A DNA stretch of 64,000 nt, from contig JBHLMI010000002.1 of NCBI GenBank assembly GCA_048938295.1, positions 7,279 through 71,278 of the forward strand. Direction: 5' to 3'. Every line of letters begins with the position of its first letter. Positions within the stretch are counted from its first letter, which is position 1. The notes beneath the pieces are model-generated. The model worked only from the letters and a program-made list of their open reading frames with translations. It had not been told where the DNA came from and did not search any database. This DNA is from Promethearchaeota archaeon. Its GTDB lineage: Archaea > Asgardarchaeota > Hermodarchaeia > Hermodarchaeales > Hermodarchaeaceae. A program made the translations under genes and the position numbers. Shown here in pieces: positions 2,044 to 11,842 of this stretch.

Positions 2044-3252
2044 CTAGTTTTCTGTAGGATTTAGGGAACAGACTTCCAAGAGAGTTTGCTGGAACTTGTC
2101 TAAGGTTTGCTGGAAGTCATCACGGACTTCAAGGTATAAATGATTGCGTTGCAGTTCCATGGTGTACAAAATTTGGACTAACTCACTTTGAAGAAAATTA
2201 GCAATTTCCCGATAAGCATCGACTAGAGTAAGCATCTGTTGGGAATATGCGCTATACTCTAAGAATAAGGAATACGCCTGCGAAACGCCTAGGAGCATAC
2301 CCTGACAATCCCGGATGTGCGATTCATAAGTCTTCAAGGACGCTCCCTGACGTATCCTGTCCCGCATCTCTAGTAATTCTAGATGCGAGCCTTCAAAGAT
2401 GCTCGAAAATAATGTGGTGTGATGGCGTTCATAGATCCACCGGGTGCGATTCGAAAGGCTGACATGCTCTTTAAAGAGTTCGTGGACAGCCTTGAAGGAA
2501 GTAATCTTTTGGTCAAATTCTTCCAGTTCTGCTGTACCAAAATATCCTGCTGACTCGGTAAGAATGAATGCAGGATGGTTCTGTGCATCCGTGACAAAGA
2601 ACTCGACCGCTTCCACTATGTGGTTTACCTTTTTGTTCAAATCTTCATTAGCTAATGCTGTTTCCACTTTTGCATATCCATCTAGTCGTAGCTGTATCGA
2701 TTCATCTGATGTTGCATACTGGAGTACATCACAAAAACGTTGCATGCTTTCACTGTAGGTTTGCTCCACGGCTTCCATCAGTTTTGGCAGGTAGTCAGCT
2801 AATCGCTTGATATTGCGTTCTACAGCTTGAAATTCATCGAGAAACTGGCGAAGAAACCAATCTACACCCTTTTGATCTAAATCATTGATCTGAATCTTTA
2901 CCCGTGGGTCACTAGATGCACGAACCATTTCAGCGAACATGCGGTGGTCAGTTATTCCGATAGATGCAAAGAGCGTTTCCATACTTCGACGAACGCTCCG
3001 ATAATAAGCATAATAAATTAATAAATTATCGACATATTCGTCAATGTATCCGATTAATGCGTTTGTATCTACTAAATGATGTTTGAGCTCAGGAGATTTT
3101 TCCTGAAAATACCGGATGAGCCGTTGATTGGCGTGTTCTTCAATTACTCTGGTTCGTTCATCATACTTCTCACTTAGGGTCAGATATTGCTCGAGGAGTT
3201 CCCAGATTAGTGCGGGTGTTTTAATTCCTGAATCTGAAGCATTTTCATTCAT
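2044..3252 (-). CDS. Hypothetical all-helical protein, first of the Rab-like GTPase neighbourhood
   Basis: 402 aa ORF with no recognisable catalytic motif and predicted to be all alpha-helical. It ends 37 nt upstream of the GTPase gene on the same strand. Confidence 0.6.
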   Translation of the reverse strand: MNENASDSGIKTPALIWELLEQYLTLSEKYDERTRVIEEHANQRLIRYFQEKSPELKHHLVDTNALIGYIDEYVDNLLIYYAYYRSVRRSMETLFASIGITDHRMFAEMVRASSDPRVKIQINDLDQKGVDWFLRQFLDEFQAVERNIKRLADYLPKLMEAVEQTYSESMQRFCDVLQYATSDESIQLRLDGYAKVETALANEDLNKKVNHIVEAVEFFVTDAQNHPAFILTESAGYFGTAELEEFDQKITSFKAVHELFKEHVSLSNRTRWIYERHHTTLFSSIFEGSHLELLEMRDRIRQGASLKTYESHIRDCQGMLLGVSQAYSLFLEYSAYSQQMLTLVDAYREIANFLQSELVQILYTMELQRNHLYLEVRDDFQQTLDKFQQTLLEVCSLNPTEN

Positions 3253-3289: not shown

Positions 3290-3838
3290 CTATTCCTTTG
3301 ACCCTTCTTTGGCAAGTTCATTAGAAAGAATAAGTTCTGCAAGCTTGTGAAAGACCTCATTGACGCCGTAATCAGTTTTCGCACTGGTTTCAAAATATTG
3401 CATTCCTTTTTGAGATGCATAAACACGCAGTTCATCTGTAGTAATGACCCTGGACTCGAGCAGGTCAATTTTATTCCCTACCAAGACGATTGGCACATCT
3501 GGACCTGAAAACTTGTGAATTTGTTCTAGCCATTTATCAACATTAACAAAGCTTTGTCGCACGGTGATGTCAAAGACCAAAAGGGCTCCTCTCGCACCTC
3601 GGTAGTAGATGGGCCTAACGCCTGCGTACCGCTCTTGTCCTGCTGTATCCCATGCTTGGAGCTTAACAATATAGTTGTTTAGGGGTAGGGATTTAACAAT
3701 GAAATCAACGCCGAGAGTTGAAATGTAGCCATCGGTAAATGTTCCATAAGCGAACCGTGTCGTGAGACTGGTTTTACCGACTTCAGCGTCACCAACGAGT
3801 ACTACTTTGAATAGATAATCAAATGCATCGTGTGACAT
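3290..3838 (-). CDS. Rab-family-like small GTPase (eukaryotic signature protein type)
   Basis: G1 GDAEVGKTS. Switch I YISTLGVDF (Rab TIGVDF-type). G3 WDTAGQERY. G4 GNKIDL (NKxD). G5 ETSAK. There are no C-terminal prenylation cysteines. Confidence 0.9.
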   Translation of the reverse strand: MSHDAFDYLFKVVLVGDAEVGKTSLTTRFAYGTFTDGYISTLGVDFIVKSLPLNNYIVKLQAWDTAGQERYAGVRPIYYRGARGALLVFDITVRQSFVNVDKWLEQIHKFSGPDVPIVLVGNKIDLLESRVITTDELRVYASQKGMQYFETSAKTDYGVNEVFHKLAELILSNELAKEGSKE

Positions 3839-3954: not shown

Positions 3955-5115
3955 TTAGGGAGGTAGGTACTCATATCCACGGTACCCTTTACGTCGCTGT
4001 ATTTTTTGCATGTCATATAATTTTTTGAGCTCATTGGACGCAGTGCCTTTCGTGATGCCAATTTCTTCAGCTACGACTGCTGATGTGACTCGTTTCAGTT
4101 CTTTTGTTATGGTTATAATTTCCCGTTGAGTGGCGGTGAGTTCATCGAACTCTTCGAACCAAATCTCGTCTTCCTCTTCTGGACTCGTTTCAATAAATCG
4201 TGTCTGATCTATAGTACTGGGTGCTAGCGTGGTAACCGGTGGTGGACTGGGTCGCTGTTTGATGACTTGTTGCACAAATTCCCGCGTGATGCGGTCTCCG
4301 GCAGGTGTATCGTCTTGAAAGGCTAGAGAGATTATATTTTCACAGAATCGTAAAGTACTGCGTGGAAAACCACGAGTATGGAGATGAATTTCTTCAATAG
4401 CCTCAGCGTTGAAGGGCGTCAGTCCTTTTCCACCAAAATGCTGGATGCGTTCGCGGATGAGCTGCTCTGTTTCTTTGGCTGTTAGGATTTCGATGCCTTC
4501 AGGACCTTCGGTCTCTAAGGCGAATTCTAATGTGACTCGTTCCGCTATCGGTGGAAAGATACTTGTTAGAGCTCTAGAGAATCCAGTTAGGCCAGCCATG
4601 AATACTACAACGGCAGGTAAATCGCTCAGAACCCGTAACCATCGGACGGTTTTCCGCTTCTCCGTTTCGATGGTCTCTGAATCGTCATGTGTCAATGCAA
4701 GTGACTGACTATCATCAATTAGCAGGACGATCCGTTGGTTACTTTGTTGGTGGAACTCATGAACCTTAGCTGCCATTGCATCGACGAGCGTGGGAACGAT
4801 TTTATTTTTTGCCATGAAGTGGTGATTCATCAGTGAAATCAATGCGTTGCTTAATATCGATGAGTTCAAGGGTTCAGAAATGAGAAGAGGAATCATACCC
4901 TTGGATTTCGCCAGAGAATCATTTAACCACCGCAGTATGTGGGTTTTCCCGGTTCCACGGCCTCCTTCGATGAGAATGATGTTGCCGGTTCGCAGTTGAA
5001 TTGTCAAGGGAGTGAGTAATCGTTTTTGCCCAGCGAAGACTTCGGGCAGAACATCAATACGAAATGGAAAATCCGACCAGCCTAGACTCTTCAATCGCTC
5101 GTCGAAAGCGAACAT
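3955..5115 (-). CDS. AAA+ ATPase with C-terminal winged-helix domain (Orc1/Cdc6-like or archaeal-ATPase PF01637-like)
   Basis: Walker A IEGGRGTGKTHIL. Walker B VLLIDDSQ. A helical lid and a C-terminal wHTH-like segment (..ITKELKRVTSAVVAEEIGITKGTASNELKKLYDMQKI..). Confidence 0.6.
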   Translation of the reverse strand: MFAFDERLKSLGWSDFPFRIDVLPEVFAGQKRLLTPLTIQLRTGNIILIEGGRGTGKTHILRWLNDSLAKSKGMIPLLISEPLNSSILSNALISLMNHHFMAKNKIVPTLVDAMAAKVHEFHQQSNQRIVLLIDDSQSLALTHDDSETIETEKRKTVRWLRVLSDLPAVVVFMAGLTGFSRALTSIFPPIAERVTLEFALETEGPEGIEILTAKETEQLIRERIQHFGGKGLTPFNAEAIEEIHLHTRGFPRSTLRFCENIISLAFQDDTPAGDRITREFVQQVIKQRPSPPPVTTLAPSTIDQTRFIETSPEEEDEIWFEEFDELTATQREIITITKELKRVTSAVVAEEIGITKGTASNELKKLYDMQKIQRRKGYRGYEYLPP

Positions 5116-5189: not shown

Positions 5190-5471
5190 CTATGCATCAG
5201 ATGAGACACCGTCACCCATTCGGCCCAAGAAATTGTTGTAGGCAAAGGGACAGACGACTTCGATGCCACCAGTAGGATCAAAGATAACCATCTCCTTTCC
5301 GATAGGGCAGAAGAGAGCACAGTAGCCACCATCTACCAGGTGTCCATTACGTTGACACTCGAAGGTCCTAGCAGTGGGGGTAATTAGTTCCAGGACTGTG
5401 GTCGAATCAAATTGTGTAACTGCTTCTTGGAGTCGTAATTTGGGTTGAAGCGCTTTGGCTTTATCACTCAC
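5190..5471 (-). CDS. Small four-cysteine protein of unknown function
   Basis: 93 aa with Cys at C39, C51 (..DGGYCALFCPIG..), C55 and C74 (..VVCPF..). Its start overlaps the stop of the upstream 67-aa ORF by 4 nt. Confidence 0.45.
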   Translation of the reverse strand: MSDKAKALQPKLRLQEAVTQFDSTTVLELITPTARTFECQRNGHLVDGGYCALFCPIGKEMVIFDPTGGIEVVCPFAYNNFLGRMGDGVSSDA

Positions 5472-5671
5472 GCATTCCTCACTCCTCTATTTCGTTTGGC
5501 CAGTGATTCATCTTCGCGTAGTTGTGCAATCGTTCGAGCAATCCGAACACGCAGCGTCGCCGTCACCAAAGGCATTGCCTCCTTGAGCTGCTCCTCTATG
5601 CTGGGAGCTTGGAGACGGGCCATCGCGTCCGGATGAGCTCTCCCAGACGCTGACGCTTTTTCGGTTGCCAT
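5468..5671 (-). CDS. Small hypothetical protein, possibly ribbon-helix-helix-like
   Basis: 67 aa ORF translationally coupled to the 93-aa ORF. The segment ..MPLVTATLRVRIARTIAQLRED.. could form an RHH-like strand plus helix. Confidence 0.35.
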   Translation of the reverse strand: MATEKASASGRAHPDAMARLQAPSIEEQLKEAMPLVTATLRVRIARTIAQLREDESLAKRNRGVRNA

Positions 5672-6018
5672 CGCTCACGTTACCTCATTGAGTTTCATTG
5701 ATAGTCATTCATCTTCATTTCACCGCATATAAAGCTTCGCATGTTTTCTCCACGTCGTCTATGCGGTTTAGAAAAGCACATAATGAAGATCAGGAAGGAA
5801 AATTTCTGCTCCAGTACAAATAGGACATAGAAGAGAATTCCATAAAAAAGCCTTGAAACGGTTATTTTTTGAAAAATAAAATTAAGTCGGTCATTATATA
5901 ATCGAAATGAACATTAAAACGCCCAGAATAGTAGCTGTTTACTGGCGCGTCTTGGCTTCGATCTCGTTAGTGAAAGACAATGCGCGCCATTCCAGTTCGA
6001 TTATAAAATTCCGAAGGC

Positions 6019-7068
6019 TCAGTCATTTTCGCCTTCAGGAATTGTTTCCATATCAGGTTCTGTTGGATGTGCAAGAATGGATTCCTGAGAGAGATAAGTG
6101 AGAAGACGGAACCGTTCAGAGTCGAGGTGAAGGAGGATTCGTAGGTGTTCCAGGGTGAAATGCGGGGCACTTCGACGGAAGTCAAGGAAATTGGTTAATT
6201 GGGCGCGGAGGGTATCCAGCTGAAGCTCAAGCAGCTTAGCTTGGAGTGCGGGATCATCTTTGGCTAACTCTAAGGCTTGTTTTGCTAAGTCCATTCCTGG
6301 TTGGTTGAAGGGTGCGATGAAAACGGGTGATTTCTTTGTGAGATTTACGAACAGGTAGTGTTCAAGGTTTTCAGGGGTGGTAAGGCTGCGGTAGACCTTT
6401 TCGGAAACACCGAGAAGTGTGGGACGTTTACGTCGTTGATCTATCCGGCTTTCAAGAATCCCCTGAGCAGTCTCAAGATCCGTGATTCCTGGCATGTTAG
6501 GAACAGTAAATGGGAGCACGTTATCGATGGCTTCGCTGAGTTCTTCGAATTTCTTTTTCTTGGCTCCGGTAATGATGATGGCGTTTCCTACGAGGATATT
6601 GAGGAGCACTATGTCTAGTGTGTCTTCGAATACCTCAAGAATGTATTCAGTGGATGAAATCCGGCGTTGGGCGACTTGGGAGCGCTCGTTATGGGCGATG
6701 AGGGCTTCATTAATGATCGGTAGGAAACTTTGGAAGGGTTTCACATCTCCATTCCATTTTTTGATTAGCGATTCATATTGAGCATAGAAGAGGACGTTCA
6801 GGCTGTGTAGTACGGCTTGAACTTCTAGTTCGTCGGCGTTTCCATCAGCGAGACCCACAGTGATTAGCGGGTCATAGACATCATAGTGGAAGCGGTATTC
6901 ACCAGCGCCGATGGTGGAAATTTCTTCTGAGATAGCTTCATGGCCAAATTCACGGATTGCAGTGAGGAGCCCTGTGAGAAGTGTTTGTTCTAGCTTCACC
7001 ACAGGTGAGGTGTGGGAGACAAGGGTTTCGCCGGATCCTAGGAAAATGAATACCGAGTGCATTGTCAT
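6019..7068 (-). CDS. Longin-like domain protein with uncharacterised C-terminal region
   Basis: The N-terminal ~110 aa show a beta-beta-alpha-beta-beta-alpha pattern (SVFIFL / TLVSHT / KLEQTLLTGLLTAIREFG / EISTIGAGEYRFHYDVY / LITVGLADGN / helix), typical of the longin (roadblock-related) fold. The remainder is mixed alpha/beta with no motif I recognise. Confidence 0.5.
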   Translation of the reverse strand: MTMHSVFIFLGSGETLVSHTSPVVKLEQTLLTGLLTAIREFGHEAISEEISTIGAGEYRFHYDVYDPLITVGLADGNADELEVQAVLHSLNVLFYAQYESLIKKWNGDVKPFQSFLPIINEALIAHNERSQVAQRRISSTEYILEVFEDTLDIVLLNILVGNAIIITGAKKKKFEELSEAIDNVLPFTVPNMPGITDLETAQGILESRIDQRRKRPTLLGVSEKVYRSLTTPENLEHYLFVNLTKKSPVFIAPFNQPGMDLAKQALELAKDDPALQAKLLELQLDTLRAQLTNFLDFRRSAPHFTLEHLRILLHLDSERFRLLTYLSQESILAHPTEPDMETIPEGEND

Positions 7069-8870: not shown

Positions 8871-11054
8871 GTGGGTAATCGGAGGTCTAGCGCAATGGAG
8901 CAGAACGGTATAGGTGCCGACGATCGAAGCGTAGTCATGCAGCCAGCTCTGAAACTTGAGGGATATTGCGTCAAAGTTGAGGGGGAAGAGCTCCCCCTTT
9001 ACAGTGGCTCGGTCGATTATTGGCGAATTCCATCCAATAAATGGGAGGCGGTTCTTACTCGTATAGCAGGTTTAGGCTTCCGAATGGTTTCAGTAGCGAT
9101 TCCATGGAATATACATGAAGTAGCTAGTGACCTGTTTGATTTTGGTAAGACCAATAAACAACGCGACATCGAAGCGTTTCTTACCCTTTGCCGAGAAAAG
9201 GGACTCTATGTGATTGTGCACCTGGGACCCTGTCTTGACGCTGAACTTAATTACTATGGTTTTCCGAAACGCCTGCTCTATGATCCCGAGATTCAGGCTG
9301 TGAGTGCCTACGGGACCCGTGTGATAATTCCTGCAATACCGAATCCATTTCCTATGCCAAGCTATGCAAGTGAAAAGTTCTATGATGAGGTATCTAAGTT
9401 CTTTGATGTGGTCTGTCCTATAATCACTCGACATCTTGCACCCGGTGGTCCAATTATCGGAGTCCACATCGACAATGATTTACCACGCATCTTTTTGAAT
9501 GGTCCATTCAGCGCTGATTATTCAGCCCATGCTTTACGGTGGTATCATGAATTTCTGAATAGTAAGTATCCATCGATTGGGGGGTTGAACAGAGCCTATC
9601 GTACCCGGTACAGTCGGTTCACTGAAATCGAACCACCTCGAGCCCTAGCAGCCACTGAGCATGAAGCCCTCCCCAGGTACCTCGATTGGATGGAATTCCA
9701 AGAATACTATGTGGGGTTAGCCCTTAGCGTGCTGGCTAGCTTGCTTTGGTCACGTGGAGTCCGAGGAGTCCTTACTCTGCACAATACCCGATCCATCTAC
9801 CCTACCTTGCCCTTGTCTGTTGGGCGAACAGAAAAGGAGTTAGATATTCAAGGCGTCGGGCTCTATCTCAGTCAGTCACATTATGACAGAATTCGACGTG
9901 GTGCGTTATACCTTAGTACTGTGAGTCGTTCACCCTACATTTCTGAGGGGGGAATAGGCGTTTGGCCTTGGGGTCCAGGTTTGCAGCCCACCGATCAGCA
10001 GTTTGCGATACTCGTTGCGTTGATGTATGGATTTCGAGGATTTAATGCCCATATGCTGGTTGGGCGAAATCGTTGGCTTGGAAGTCCCATATCAGAGATA
10101 GGTGAAGCCGATGATGCCAACTCAGCATTCATGAAGCGATTACTTGAGGTGTTAAATGCTGTTGAATTCCATACTTTACAGCGCAACGTCCCTGTATTGT
10201 TGCTGCGCAACTTCGAGTATGAGCGGCTCCAACGCATGTGCACAAACTCCAATTGGCTGACCCATATGTTGGGAATTCCAGACGATTTGTTACTGGGTAA
10301 CCGAACATTTAGTTATACGGAAACGATCCAGAAAGCCTATCCCGCTCTGTGGGATGCCTACTATTGGGGATTGACCCTATCTAAGATCCCCTTTGCCATC
10401 GGTGATAGCACCATGGACCTGCCAGCGTTAAACCGATATCAGGCCCTGATTATTCCGAGTTTCGATTTTATGTCCGATGAGCTGCAGTCCAAGATAATGG
10501 ATTTTGTCGAACGAGGTGGTACAGCCATTCTTGGTCCGGAACTACCCTACCTGGGAATGGATATGCGTGGGTGCTCCGTGATAGCTGACCGTGCAGGCAT
10601 TCAGCCCACATCGACCCGTCGACCATTAGTTGGGCTTCACGATCCCTTTACTCTTATAGATGATAAAATTCAAGTGGGAAACCGTTCCGCTGGGGAAGTC
10701 AAGCAGGTAGGTAAAGGGACAATTGTCTATCTTGGAATAACAATGCCTCCAACCCTGAATCGTGATGAAGCAATGGAAGCAGAAACTGTTATCACCAAAT
10801 CCTTGAAGCATCTAAACTTGAGTGCTATAGGAGATGCACAAAATCCATCTGTTGATGAAATTCATTGGGGTGTTCGGGCCCCTAATGTAATCTTTCAGGT
10901 AAACGCTACTAACCAACCACAATCAGTTACCCTAAAGGTAGCCAAACGCGTGATAATTCGAGATCTTTGGACCGGTGAACAGCTACCTGATAAAGGTCCT
11001 CAGGAAATCGAACTACAAGCCCATGAATTACGTATTTTCGAGGTGGTTCGATGA
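8871..11054 (+). CDS. GH35/GH42-like glycoside hydrolase (beta-galactosidase superfamily) with altered signature
   Basis: APGGPIIGVHIDNDLP resembles the family-35 signature G-G-P-[LIVM](2)-x(2)-Q-x-E-N-E-[FY], but with H-I-D-N-D in place of Q-x-E-N-E. N-terminal TIM-barrel-like region. The true start may be the internal M at 8895. Confidence 0.6.
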   Translation: MGNRRSSAMEQNGIGADDRSVVMQPALKLEGYCVKVEGEELPLYSGSVDYWRIPSNKWEAVLTRIAGLGFRMVSVAIPWNIHEVASDLFDFGKTNKQRDIEAFLTLCREKGLYVIVHLGPCLDAELNYYGFPKRLLYDPEIQAVSAYGTRVIIPAIPNPFPMPSYASEKFYDEVSKFFDVVCPIITRHLAPGGPIIGVHIDNDLPRIFLNGPFSADYSAHALRWYHEFLNSKYPSIGGLNRAYRTRYSRFTEIEPPRALAATEHEALPRYLDWMEFQEYYVGLALSVLASLLWSRGVRGVLTLHNTRSIYPTLPLSVGRTEKELDIQGVGLYLSQSHYDRIRRGALYLSTVSRSPYISEGGIGVWPWGPGLQPTDQQFAILVALMYGFRGFNAHMLVGRNRWLGSPISEIGEADDANSAFMKRLLEVLNAVEFHTLQRNVPVLLLRNFEYERLQRMCTNSNWLTHMLGIPDDLLLGNRTFSYTETIQKAYPALWDAYYWGLTLSKIPFAIGDSTMDLPALNRYQALIIPSFDFMSDELQSKIMDFVERGGTAILGPELPYLGMDMRGCSVIADRAGIQPTSTRRPLVGLHDPFTLIDDKIQVGNRSAGEVKQVGKGTIVYLGITMPPTLNRDEAMEAETVITKSLKHLNLSAIGDAQNPSVDEIHWGVRAPNVIFQVNATNQPQSVTLKVAKRVIIRDLWTGEQLPDKGPQEIELQAHELRIFEVVR

Positions 11055-11842
11055 GACGTCTCGACCAGAATTTTGAATTTGTGAATATGAAGAGCGCTCA
11101 TTGGTTCAATTTACTGTCCAGCTTACCCCAATTTACGAGCGAGCGTGGAGCACTTTTTCTACTATACAAAGGAGCTGAAATCATCCATGCTTTTCATTCA
11201 CTCCAAGGTATCCGACCAGACCTCACGGGTCCCTTTTCCACGCCCTCCATCCTTGTGCAGCAGATGCAACAACGAGAAGATGTTGATGCAGTCTTTATGA
11301 TTGAGCAGGGACTCGTTCTCTATCTGATTGCGAAGATGCAGGGTGCTTTTACTCCAGAAATGGACATCTTCCAATACTTGGAACTGGCTCAAACCAGCCT
11401 GGAAGAGGAAATCGGGAGACGAGTTTATATTTGGCCTCAGGAATTCTGGAATAAGGGTTTGTTTAAACTCTTCGAACGGACACGCAATGTATTGGACGCG
11501 TTACCTAGTAACTATATTTGTCTTCTCACAGTCTTTGAGGAGAACTCCATCTGGGCAAGTCTGATCATCGAAGGAGTAAACGGCCAAATCCATCGAATTA
11601 CCTCCACACAGGCATTAGAGCCAGTGGCAATTACGATTTCTGATTGGCAAACAGATTATCCAAAATTACTTGAGCTCGTTACAAAAAAAATTGGCTCCCC
11701 CACCTTGGGAGTGTTTACCGATGATGAAACACTCCGTTTTCTATTGCGTAGTGAGACACCACTTGAGTTTATCCGCCAGGCCCGTCGAACGAATCAGATT
11801 ATATTAGATCCTTTGCCCAGCCAGATTCGTAATCAACTCTAG
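11051..11842 (+). CDS. Hypothetical protein, translationally coupled to the glycosidase
   Basis: Its ATG overlaps the TGA of the upstream gene (ATGA at 11051-11054). No motif recognised. Confidence 0.55.
   Translation: MRRLDQNFEFVNMKSAHWFNLLSSLPQFTSERGALFLLYKGAEIIHAFHSLQGIRPDLTGPFSTPSILVQQMQQREDVDAVFMIEQGLVLYLIAKMQGAFTPEMDIFQYLELAQTSLEEEIGRRVYIWPQEFWNKGLFKLFERTRNVLDALPSNYICLLTVFEENSIWASLIIEGVNGQIHRITSTQALEPVAITISDWQTDYPKLLELVTKKIGSPTLGVFTDDETLRFLLRSETPLEFIRQARRTNQIILDPLPSQIRNQL

Follow-up and report, generated by a model that had tools for sequence, protein, structure and literature searches.

A conserved Asgard archaeal protein with a predicted longin-DENN architecture, encoded close to a Rab-like GTPase

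Results

The stretch of DNA analysed here (the window; 64,000 nucleotides of contig JBHLMI010000002.1 from a Promethearchaeota archaeon, GenBank assembly GCA_048938295.1) encodes, at 6019..7068 on the reverse strand (-), a protein of 349 residues that, as judged from predicted structures, is very likely a single-chain longin-DENN module, made up of a longin domain, the DENN core and, at the end, a short helical region like dDENN. The open reading frame (ORF) has an ATG start and a stop codon at 6019-6021, and comparison with full-length homologues indicates that the coding sequence is complete. The product is identical to NCBI MFX1317677.1, a 'hypothetical protein' from Promethearchaeota archaeon. 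On the same strand, 2.2 kb downstream, lies a gene for a Rab-like small GTPase.

Homologues of the 349-residue protein form 39 clusters at 44-100% identity with essentially full-length coverage, and a second tier, of proteins of ~350 residues at ~25-33% identity, emerged from a profile search; its source labels include Thor- and Odinarchaeota metagenome-assembled genomes. The family comprises ~60 homologue clusters, every one of which comes from Asgard archaea and is labelled 'hypothetical', with neither a functional name nor a precomputed Pfam domain in any member. Because conservation is full-length over both tiers, the ORF at 6019-7068, which had been proposed in a reading of the sequence alone (here the sequence-only reading), is a real, conserved and unannotated gene; within the 64-kb window it has no paralogue. 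The residues kept in at least 90% of sequences in both subfamilies include D63, D75, D79, N91, W105, D152, P190 and M192, and the residues common to both subfamilies are candidates for a conserved interaction surface. Searched alone, the protein matched nothing in Pfam, NCBIfam, PADLOC or the PDB sequences (phmmer); two family profiles searched against the PDB with hmmsearch yielded nothing beyond noise (uS15, eL8 and a de novo designed protein), apart from one suggestive sub-threshold match, to TRAPP Bet5 (E 0.12).

An AlphaFold2 (AF2) model of the full-length protein, built on a 32-sequence family alignment, has a mean predicted local distance difference test score (pLDDT) of 84.3 and a predicted template modelling score (pTM) of 0.71. 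Secondary structure assignment by DSSP reveals, in its N-terminal region, strands 3-10 and 15-20, helix 28-46, strands 52-55, 58-65 and 68-75, and helix 80-103, an order that the sequence-only reading had essentially right, save that strands 3 and 4 had been merged. Foldseek comparison of the predicted structure with the PDB, the check which that reading had proposed, returned longin, roadblock and DENN matches. Far from being unrelated to the longin/roadblock folds, the N-terminal domain (6754..7068 (-)) has many matches to them: dozens of longin or roadblock domains were retrieved with the full-length model at E 3e-5 to 6e-4 and template modelling (TM) scores (TMt) of 0.5-0.74, including those of Sec22b, VAMP7, TRAPP Bet5 and Trs23, AP sigma, the AP mu N-terminal domain, Mon1-Ccz1 and LAMTOR. 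Sequence evidence points the same way, the protein matching, at E 9.6e-5, a relative (P0062) which scores 35.2 bits against Pfam Fuz_longin_1 (cut-off 26.1 bits), and sub-threshold matches to Fuz_longin_1 occur in 17 of 38 family members. The longin assignment, which the sequence-only reading had also made, is therefore solid, with a predicted structure and transitive sequence evidence in agreement, and in sequence the affinity of the domain is with the Fuz/Mon1/HPS1 longins of guanine nucleotide exchange factor (GEF) type.

A search of 1.8 billion representative proteins found many remote relatives that match residues 3-125 only. In one protein of 312 residues (P0046) this longin subtype is joined to an Arf/Ras GTPase domain, and in two others (P0047 and P0056), which are TPR-repeat proteins (by Pfam) of ~670 residues, it lies at the C terminus, several further remote relatives from that search being of similar size to the latter.

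The C-terminal two thirds of the protein begin, at residues 106-159 (6592..6753 (-)), with a hinge, W105-x-G107, that is invariant and with two long helices (116-135 and 139-159) that link it to the DENN core, as indicated by the AF2 models and by conservation. Residues 160-270 (6259..6591 (-)) are predicted to form the core DENN alpha/beta domain, with AF2 strands at 163-167, 191-195, 217-221, 239-242 and 249-251 alternating with helices. An all-helical tail at residues 271-330 (6079..6258 (-); helices 273-300, 306-313 and 317-329) falls within the DENN-module alignments (~205-230 columns) and resembles a short dDENN region, and residues 331-349 (6022..6078 (-)) form an acidic tail that is predicted to be disordered (pLDDT <50 at 335-349) and varies in length among homologues.

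With the full-length model, the near-full-length Foldseek matches (~380-440 columns) were only to longin+DENN proteins, plus BLOC-3; DENND10 ranked first (E 4.5e-7), followed by a chain of an FLCN complex (2e-5) and then by a C9orf72-SMCR8 complex chain, DENND1A and BLOC-3. The low TM-scores (~0.34) and high root-mean-square deviations (rmsd; 16-19 Å) of these matches imply a different inter-domain angle. Residues 105-349 were also remodelled alone with AF2, using a 38-sequence alignment covering both subfamilies, which gave a pLDDT of 88.3 and a pTM of 0.78. Five of the six Foldseek matches to this C-terminal model at E <= 1e-3 were DENN modules, i.e. an FLCN complex chain (6nzd_H; E 5.7e-5, TMq 0.47, rmsd 12.7 Å), the crystal structure of the folliculin C-terminal domain (3v42_B; E 6e-5, TMt 0.55, rmsd 5.4 Å over 207 columns), DENND1B (3tw8_C; E 3.7e-4, TMq 0.46, rmsd 5.8 Å), a chain of the C9orf72-SMCR8-WDR41 complex (6lt0_B; E 5.6e-4, TMq 0.46, rmsd 9.6 Å) and DENND1A (6ekk_A; E 8.1e-4, TMq 0.51, rmsd 5.5 Å); the sixth was a Mg-chelatase AAA+ subunit with a TM-score of 0.31, and DENND10 (8p0v_M) came next, with E 1.2e-3 and a TM-score of 0.43. 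A weak match to Pfam Folliculin_C aligns residues 44-82 of the C-terminal fragment (148-186 of the full-length protein, the first beta-alpha unit) with Pfam positions 15-53 at E 0.16; three family members match at E 0.05-0.16, and the fragment from the window scores 11.9 bits against a cut-off of 27 bits.

The tripartite DENN module consists of a longin or uDENN domain, a five-stranded alpha/beta core (cDENN) and a helical dDENN region (Zhang et al. 2012, PMC3521125; also Levivier 2001), the last of these with two alpha-hairpins (PMC3521125). In the protein studied here the longin/uDENN element is apparent from DSSP, from Foldseek and from Fuz_longin_1 in relatives, the central three-layer alpha/beta sandwich with its five-stranded sheet is present in the models with borderline TM values, and the all-alpha dDENN region is represented by the three helices between residues 273 and 329. 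No significant match to the Pfam DENN, uDENN, dDENN or Folliculin_C families was obtained for the protein, so that its membership of the DENN class rests on structure and not on sequence. The ~240-residue C-terminal region, which the sequence-only reading had left uncharacterised while listing a DENN-like match among its options, is thus very probably a DENN domain (cDENN plus a short dDENN).

A surface protein of 2321 residues with Cna_B repeats and an LPXTG anchor (P0044) gave 13 matches to residues 168-222 at E 1e-10; homology with it was set aside as a probable compositional artefact of a Lys-rich stretch.

The Rab-like GTPase (182 residues; 3290..3838 (-)) matches Pfam Ras at 5.7e-57 and, among PDB sequences, Rab1A (7e-53), Rab35 (2e-48) and a Thorarchaeota Rab (7e-43); it has a P-loop (G16-T23), DTAGQ68, NKxD and SAK motifs, and no C-terminal Cys. 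The gene order from the longin-DENN gene to the GTPase gene is kept in loci of homologues at 77%, 58% and 51% identity, always with an ATPase gene of the AAA_22 and winged helix-turn-helix (wHTH) type between the two, and in one such locus (L004) an orthologue of the GTPase, 67% identical, is found in the same position. A homologue at 44% identity has unrelated surroundings (L003) and is flanked by three different Ras-family genes, the products of which are only 28-29% identical to the Rab-like protein of the window. In this region (6945-12703 of L003) two of the three Ras-family genes have N-terminal extensions of ~110-130 residues, and one encodes a protein of 781 residues with two Ras-like domains and an SCP2 lipid-binding domain. 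The distant subfamily, labelled Thor or Odin, has a conserved arrangement of its own in four loci (L006, L007, L009 and L010), in which a gene for an unannotated protein of ~300 residues is followed by the longin-DENN homologue and an overlapping gene for ~180 residues; a SNAP-like TPR gene is nearby in all four, and a Robl_LC7 gene within ~2 kb in three (not L007). Neither partner, of ~300 or ~180 residues, has matches in Pfam or the PDB.

The spacer between the longin-DENN gene and the downstream unit (5672..6018 (-)) is 347 bp long, and spacers of similar length (~330-440 bp) occur in relatives. From the sequence and an alignment of four lineages, the stop codon of the longin-DENN gene is followed by T-tracts at ~5881-5872 and 5849-5844, and a block common to the four lineages, ATAATGACCGACTTAATTTT (~5876-5897 (-), ~120 nucleotides past the stop), runs into these tracts and could be a terminator-associated or regulatory element. 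Upstream of the gene for a 67-residue protein, with which the downstream unit begins, there is a TATA-like sequence that is conserved in the four lineages, GAAGCTTTATATG (5726-5738; box 5727-5733), and between this box and the start of that gene are four AATGA repeats with an exact spacing of 10 nucleotides (5685-5719 (-)). The AATGA array is unique in the window (none in 100 shuffles); L001, L002 and L004 have it too, and L005 carries a degenerate version. No non-coding RNA was found in the spacer with Rfam at E <= 1. The array looks like an operator, for which the wHTH tail of the AAA_22 protein is a candidate binder, and the Rab-containing unit most likely has its own promoter together with this operator-like element. 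A spacer of ~350 bp with T-tracts and a TATA-like box of its own argues that the longin-DENN gene is probably a separate transcription unit and a conserved neighbour of the Rab-containing one. The sequence-only reading had made it the first gene of the cluster with the Rab-like GTPase; its conserved proximity to the gene of a Rab-family GTPase stands, but it is probably not the first cistron.

The genes that lie between the spacer and the GTPase gene are likewise conserved in position. The first (5468..5671 (-)) encodes the helical protein of 67 residues, which has an invariant RIAR-x-IAQLRED motif and no family match. It is overlapped by 4 nucleotides by a gene for a protein of 93 residues (5190..5471 (-)), also without a family match, in which four invariant Cys residues (C39, C51, C55 and C74; C-x11-C-x3-C-x18-C) suggest a metal site. 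A Roadblock/LAMTOR identity of these two proteins was considered and rejected, no family matches having been found and the larger being a Cys4 protein. The gene at 3955..5115 (-) encodes a P-loop ATPase of 386 residues (Pfam AAA_22, 2.4e-7) with a C-terminal, MarR-like winged helix; helix-turn-helix matches at residues 325-380 are sub-threshold, and TIGR03015, at 1.7e-13, is far below its cut-off. After the GTPase gene comes one for a protein of 402 residues (2044..3252 (-)), for which neither the family searches nor the PDB gave a match; in L004 and L005, although not in L001, the gene after that of the GTPase is of comparable length (409 or 427 residues). That the neighbourhood, with its AAA ATPase and GTPase, is a defence system was considered and rejected, as PADLOC gave only local P-loop and wHTH matches. 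On the opposite strand, an ORF of 263 residues without a family match (11051-11842 (+)) overlaps the stop codon of a GH35-like gene by 4 nucleotides, and occupies the same position in L001, L004 and L005.

Discussion

The sequence-only reading had noted a degenerate glycine/lysine loop in the protein's C-terminal part as a possible relic of a nucleotide-binding loop. The segment in question, VGNAIIITGAKKKK (residues 160-173; 6550..6591 (-)), is present and corresponds to the first beta-strand and following loop of the predicted DENN core, not to a P-loop. A P-loop NTPase is defined here by a Walker A motif (G-x4-G-K-[ST]) following beta1 together with an acidic Walker B that is conserved; within the family the loop varies freely (GAKKKK, GVKNKK, GVDNKI, GVDYKT, G-SSEK, C-SDEH, G-NPAK and G-RKSRN), Walker A is present at this position in none of 63 sequences, and the family alignment has no conserved acidic Walker B after strand 217-221. 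Because the loop is unconserved and Walker A is absent, it is not a sequence relic of a P-loop. What survives of the idea is structural, in that beta-strands and helices are arranged in the DENN core as they are in a minimal P-loop NTPase domain, with the residues for binding missing (Zhang et al. 2012, PMC3521125; Nookala et al. 2012, PMC3438538), and our protein likewise combines a P-loop-like topology with a lack of Walker A/B and Mg-binding residues. A degenerate P-loop or AAA+-like NTPase domain behind the longin domain would fit the location of the Gly/Lys-rich loop at the first beta-loop-alpha position and the appearance of Mg-chelatase ChlI/BchI, ComM and MCM in the Foldseek list for the C-terminal model; however, these AAA+ matches have TM-scores of 0.26-0.34 and rmsd >11 Å, compared with TM-scores of 0.43-0.55 for DENN modules, and they are like the spurious NTPase resemblance documented for folliculin-CT and for DENN domains generally (PMC3521125; PMC3438538), so that such a domain is very improbable. 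Similarly, although affinity of the N-terminal sequence to Fuz_longin_1 and the presence of Mon1-Ccz1 and BLOC-3 chains among the full-length Foldseek matches might have indicated a GEF subunit of the tri-longin type (Mon1/Ccz1/Fuzzy/HPS1-like), the protein has a single longin domain, not the three in succession of Mon1, Ccz1, Fuzzy, Inturned, HPS1 and HPS4, its C-terminal part is a beta-alpha repeat plus helices, and Foldseek with the C-terminal model alone returned no Mon1, Ccz1 or HPS chain; the tri-longin possibility is effectively refuted.

With regard to function, a GTPase-activating protein (GAP) of the folliculin/SMCR8 type, with dimerisation via the longin domain and an arginine finger offered to a GTPase of Rag-, Arf- or Rab-like type, is suggested by the folliculin chains being the best matches to the C-terminal domain, by a domain order the same as that of FLCN, and by reports of FLCN-like longin+DENN proteins and GP-motif longins in Heimdall-group Asgard archaea. 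In the longin-domain GAPs FLCN, SMCR8 and NPRL2 the GP motif lies at the end of the beta1-beta2 loop, just before beta2 (PMC12290439), and the arginine finger, R164 in FLCN and R147 in SMCR8, is on the beta4-beta5 loop (10.1101/2020.04.16.045708). Neither feature is present in the family. The beta1-beta2 loop is S12-G13-E14-T15 (S-G-E/L-x before beta2 in all members), with the Gly conserved and Pro in none of 37 aligned members; the beta4-beta5 loop, Y65-D-P-L68, has no conserved Arg in either subfamily, and in some members it carries an Arg-free insertion of 21 residues. R51 and R59 are limited to the subfamily of the window, R51 being Ser in the window protein itself, and R39, the only Arg conserved in both subfamilies, is in the middle of helix alpha1. 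The zinc module found at the N terminus of FLCN is lacking, and no second longin-DENN gene that might supply a heterodimer partner of the FNIP, C9orf72 or NPRL3 type is found in the 64-kb window or in the syntenic loci. The absence of GP motif, arginine finger and partner gene makes a FLCN-type GAP mechanism improbable, and a GEF or GTPase-binding role likelier than a GAP role.

An alternative to catalysis is that the protein is a scaffold or effector, binding a small GTPase or other partners in a nucleotide-state-dependent manner or as a structural platform, without speeding either exchange or hydrolysis. The top full-length structural match, DENND10, belongs to Commander and is almost equal in size, the family showed no catalytic signature, the longin-DENN gene is apparently transcribed apart from the GTPase unit, and the partners to which the distant subfamily is coupled are not GTPases. 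The residues shared by both subfamilies suggest a conserved functional surface, although pure binding would also fit them, and adjacency to GTPase genes recurs in two independent contexts; on balance we consider a purely non-catalytic role somewhat unlikely.

The best explanation overall, which we judge to have slightly better than an even chance of being correct, is a compact tripartite DENN module that acts on the nucleotide state of a GTPase. The partner of the protein would be a small GTPase, most probably the Rab-like one whose gene lies downstream, bound by the longin/cDENN surface in the manner of DENND1 and Rab35, and the protein would control the nucleotide state of this partner. That it binds or regulates some small GTPase, probably the one encoded nearby, is moderately likely, whereas GEF activity specifically towards that Rab-like protein is a prediction that we advance tentatively.

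Several points weigh against this interpretation. Profile searches of Pfam, NCBIfam and the PDB for DENN domains were all negative or sub-threshold; TM-scores of 0.43-0.55 are borderline; the AF2 models are built on shallow, family-only alignments (32-38 sequences); and the comparison of the DENN core is one of strand count and Foldseek scores, the strand order B-C-A-D-E being the feature of folliculin-CT and DENND1B. To our knowledge, no GEF activity has been ascribed to DENND10. Apparently separate transcription from the Rab unit is a further point, as are the L008 locus and the loci of the distant subfamily, in which no recognisable GTPase gene is adjacent to the homologue. Moreover, the conserved order in L001, L004 and L005 takes in unrelated genes upstream as well (M42 peptidase, PNPOx and GH35), so that conserved proximity to the Rab-like gene may reflect general collinearity; as indications of a GTPase linkage, the L003 context and the longin-GTPase fusion in P0046 carry more weight than the collinear loci.

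DENN modules are among the main regulators of Rab proteins in eukaryotic membrane traffic, and their presence beside Rab-like GTPases in Asgard archaea bears on how much of GTPase-regulator logic predates eukaryotes. The general phenomenon has already been published, which limits the surprise; the assignment nevertheless improves the annotation of ~60 clusters labelled Hod-, Thor-, Odin- and Promethearchaeota, a family to which Pfam and NCBIfam are blind. A more far-reaching version is that the protein is a stand-alone, minimal archaeal exchange factor of DENN type with the neighbouring Rab-like protein as its client, and that the adjacent unit (67-residue protein, Cys4 protein, AAA_22-wHTH ATPase and Rab) regulates itself, its promoter being controlled via the fourfold AATGA array. 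Although we regard this version as unlikely, it would, if true, give prokaryotes a full Rab-plus-GEF switch under transcriptional control of its own and without Roadblock or Ragulator, distinct from the described Asgard DENN operon. A well-predicted longin-DENN protein of only 349 residues and a candidate client encoded nearby also make a tractable pair with which to decide between GEF, GAP and scaffold for an archaeal DENN protein.

Of the known systems, DENND10 (FAM45A; Commander/CCC, 8p0v chain M) is the best full-length structural match and, with 357 residues compared with 349, has, like our protein, hardly anything besides the DENN module (longin, core and helical tail). Identity is, however, only ~12-16%, and the TM-score is 0.34 for the full-length protein and 0.43 for its C-terminal part. 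DENND10-like folds have been noted in Archaea and Bacteria. The Commander partners CCDC22/93 and VPS35L are reported absent in Archaea (PMC13392464). FLCN (the RagC/D GAP with FNIP; 3v42, 6nzd and 8dhb) shares the domain order, the C-terminal domain of our protein finds its best match in that of FLCN, and the weak Folliculin_C match is in the correct register; the differences lie in the N-terminal Zn module, GP motif and beta4-beta5 arginine finger, which our protein lacks, in the absence of an FNIP-like partner gene nearby, and in the neighbouring GTPase, which is Rab-like and not Rag-like. DENND1A and DENND1B (connecdenn, Rab35 GEF; 6ekk and 3tw8) have the same tripartite longin-cDENN-dDENN organisation, with TMq values of 0.46-0.51 to the C-terminal domain, and act on substrates of the Rab class, Rab35 being the second-best solved relative of the GTPase in the window; sequence similarity to them is not significant, the dDENN region of our protein is shorter (three helices), and its GEF role is predicted only. 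At the level of sequence, the closest family for the N-terminal domain is the first longin of Mon1-Ccz1, Fuzzy and HPS1 (Pfam PF19036), i.e. GTPase-binding longins of GEF type, although those proteins have three longin domains and no DENN domain.

Within Asgard archaea, Liu et al. (bioRxiv 10.1101/2020.10.19.343400) described DENN-domain proteins, an operon in which the gene of a DENN protein accompanies those of a Rab-like GTPase and a LAMTOR1-like Roadblock protein, and proteins of the Heimdall group whose longin+DENN organisation is exactly that of FLCN; a role as GTPase regulators was proposed for them. Later papers list DENN domains among Asgard eukaryotic-signature proteins, and a 2025 study reports GP-motif longins of the FLCN/SMCR8 type in Asgard archaea, a class outside which, by its sequences, the present family falls. 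The locus described here resembles the operon of Liu et al. in its Asgard source, in the genomic linkage of a DENN/FLCN-like protein to a Rab-like GTPase and in the proposed regulator role; it differs in having no Roadblock/LAMTOR gene and in the genes for the 67-residue, 93-residue Cys4 and AAA_22-wHTH proteins that lie between DENN and Rab. Asgard DENN proteins and their linkage to Rab-like GTPases are thus already on record, and the protein described here adds a previously unannotated member whose neighbourhood differs from that of the published operon.

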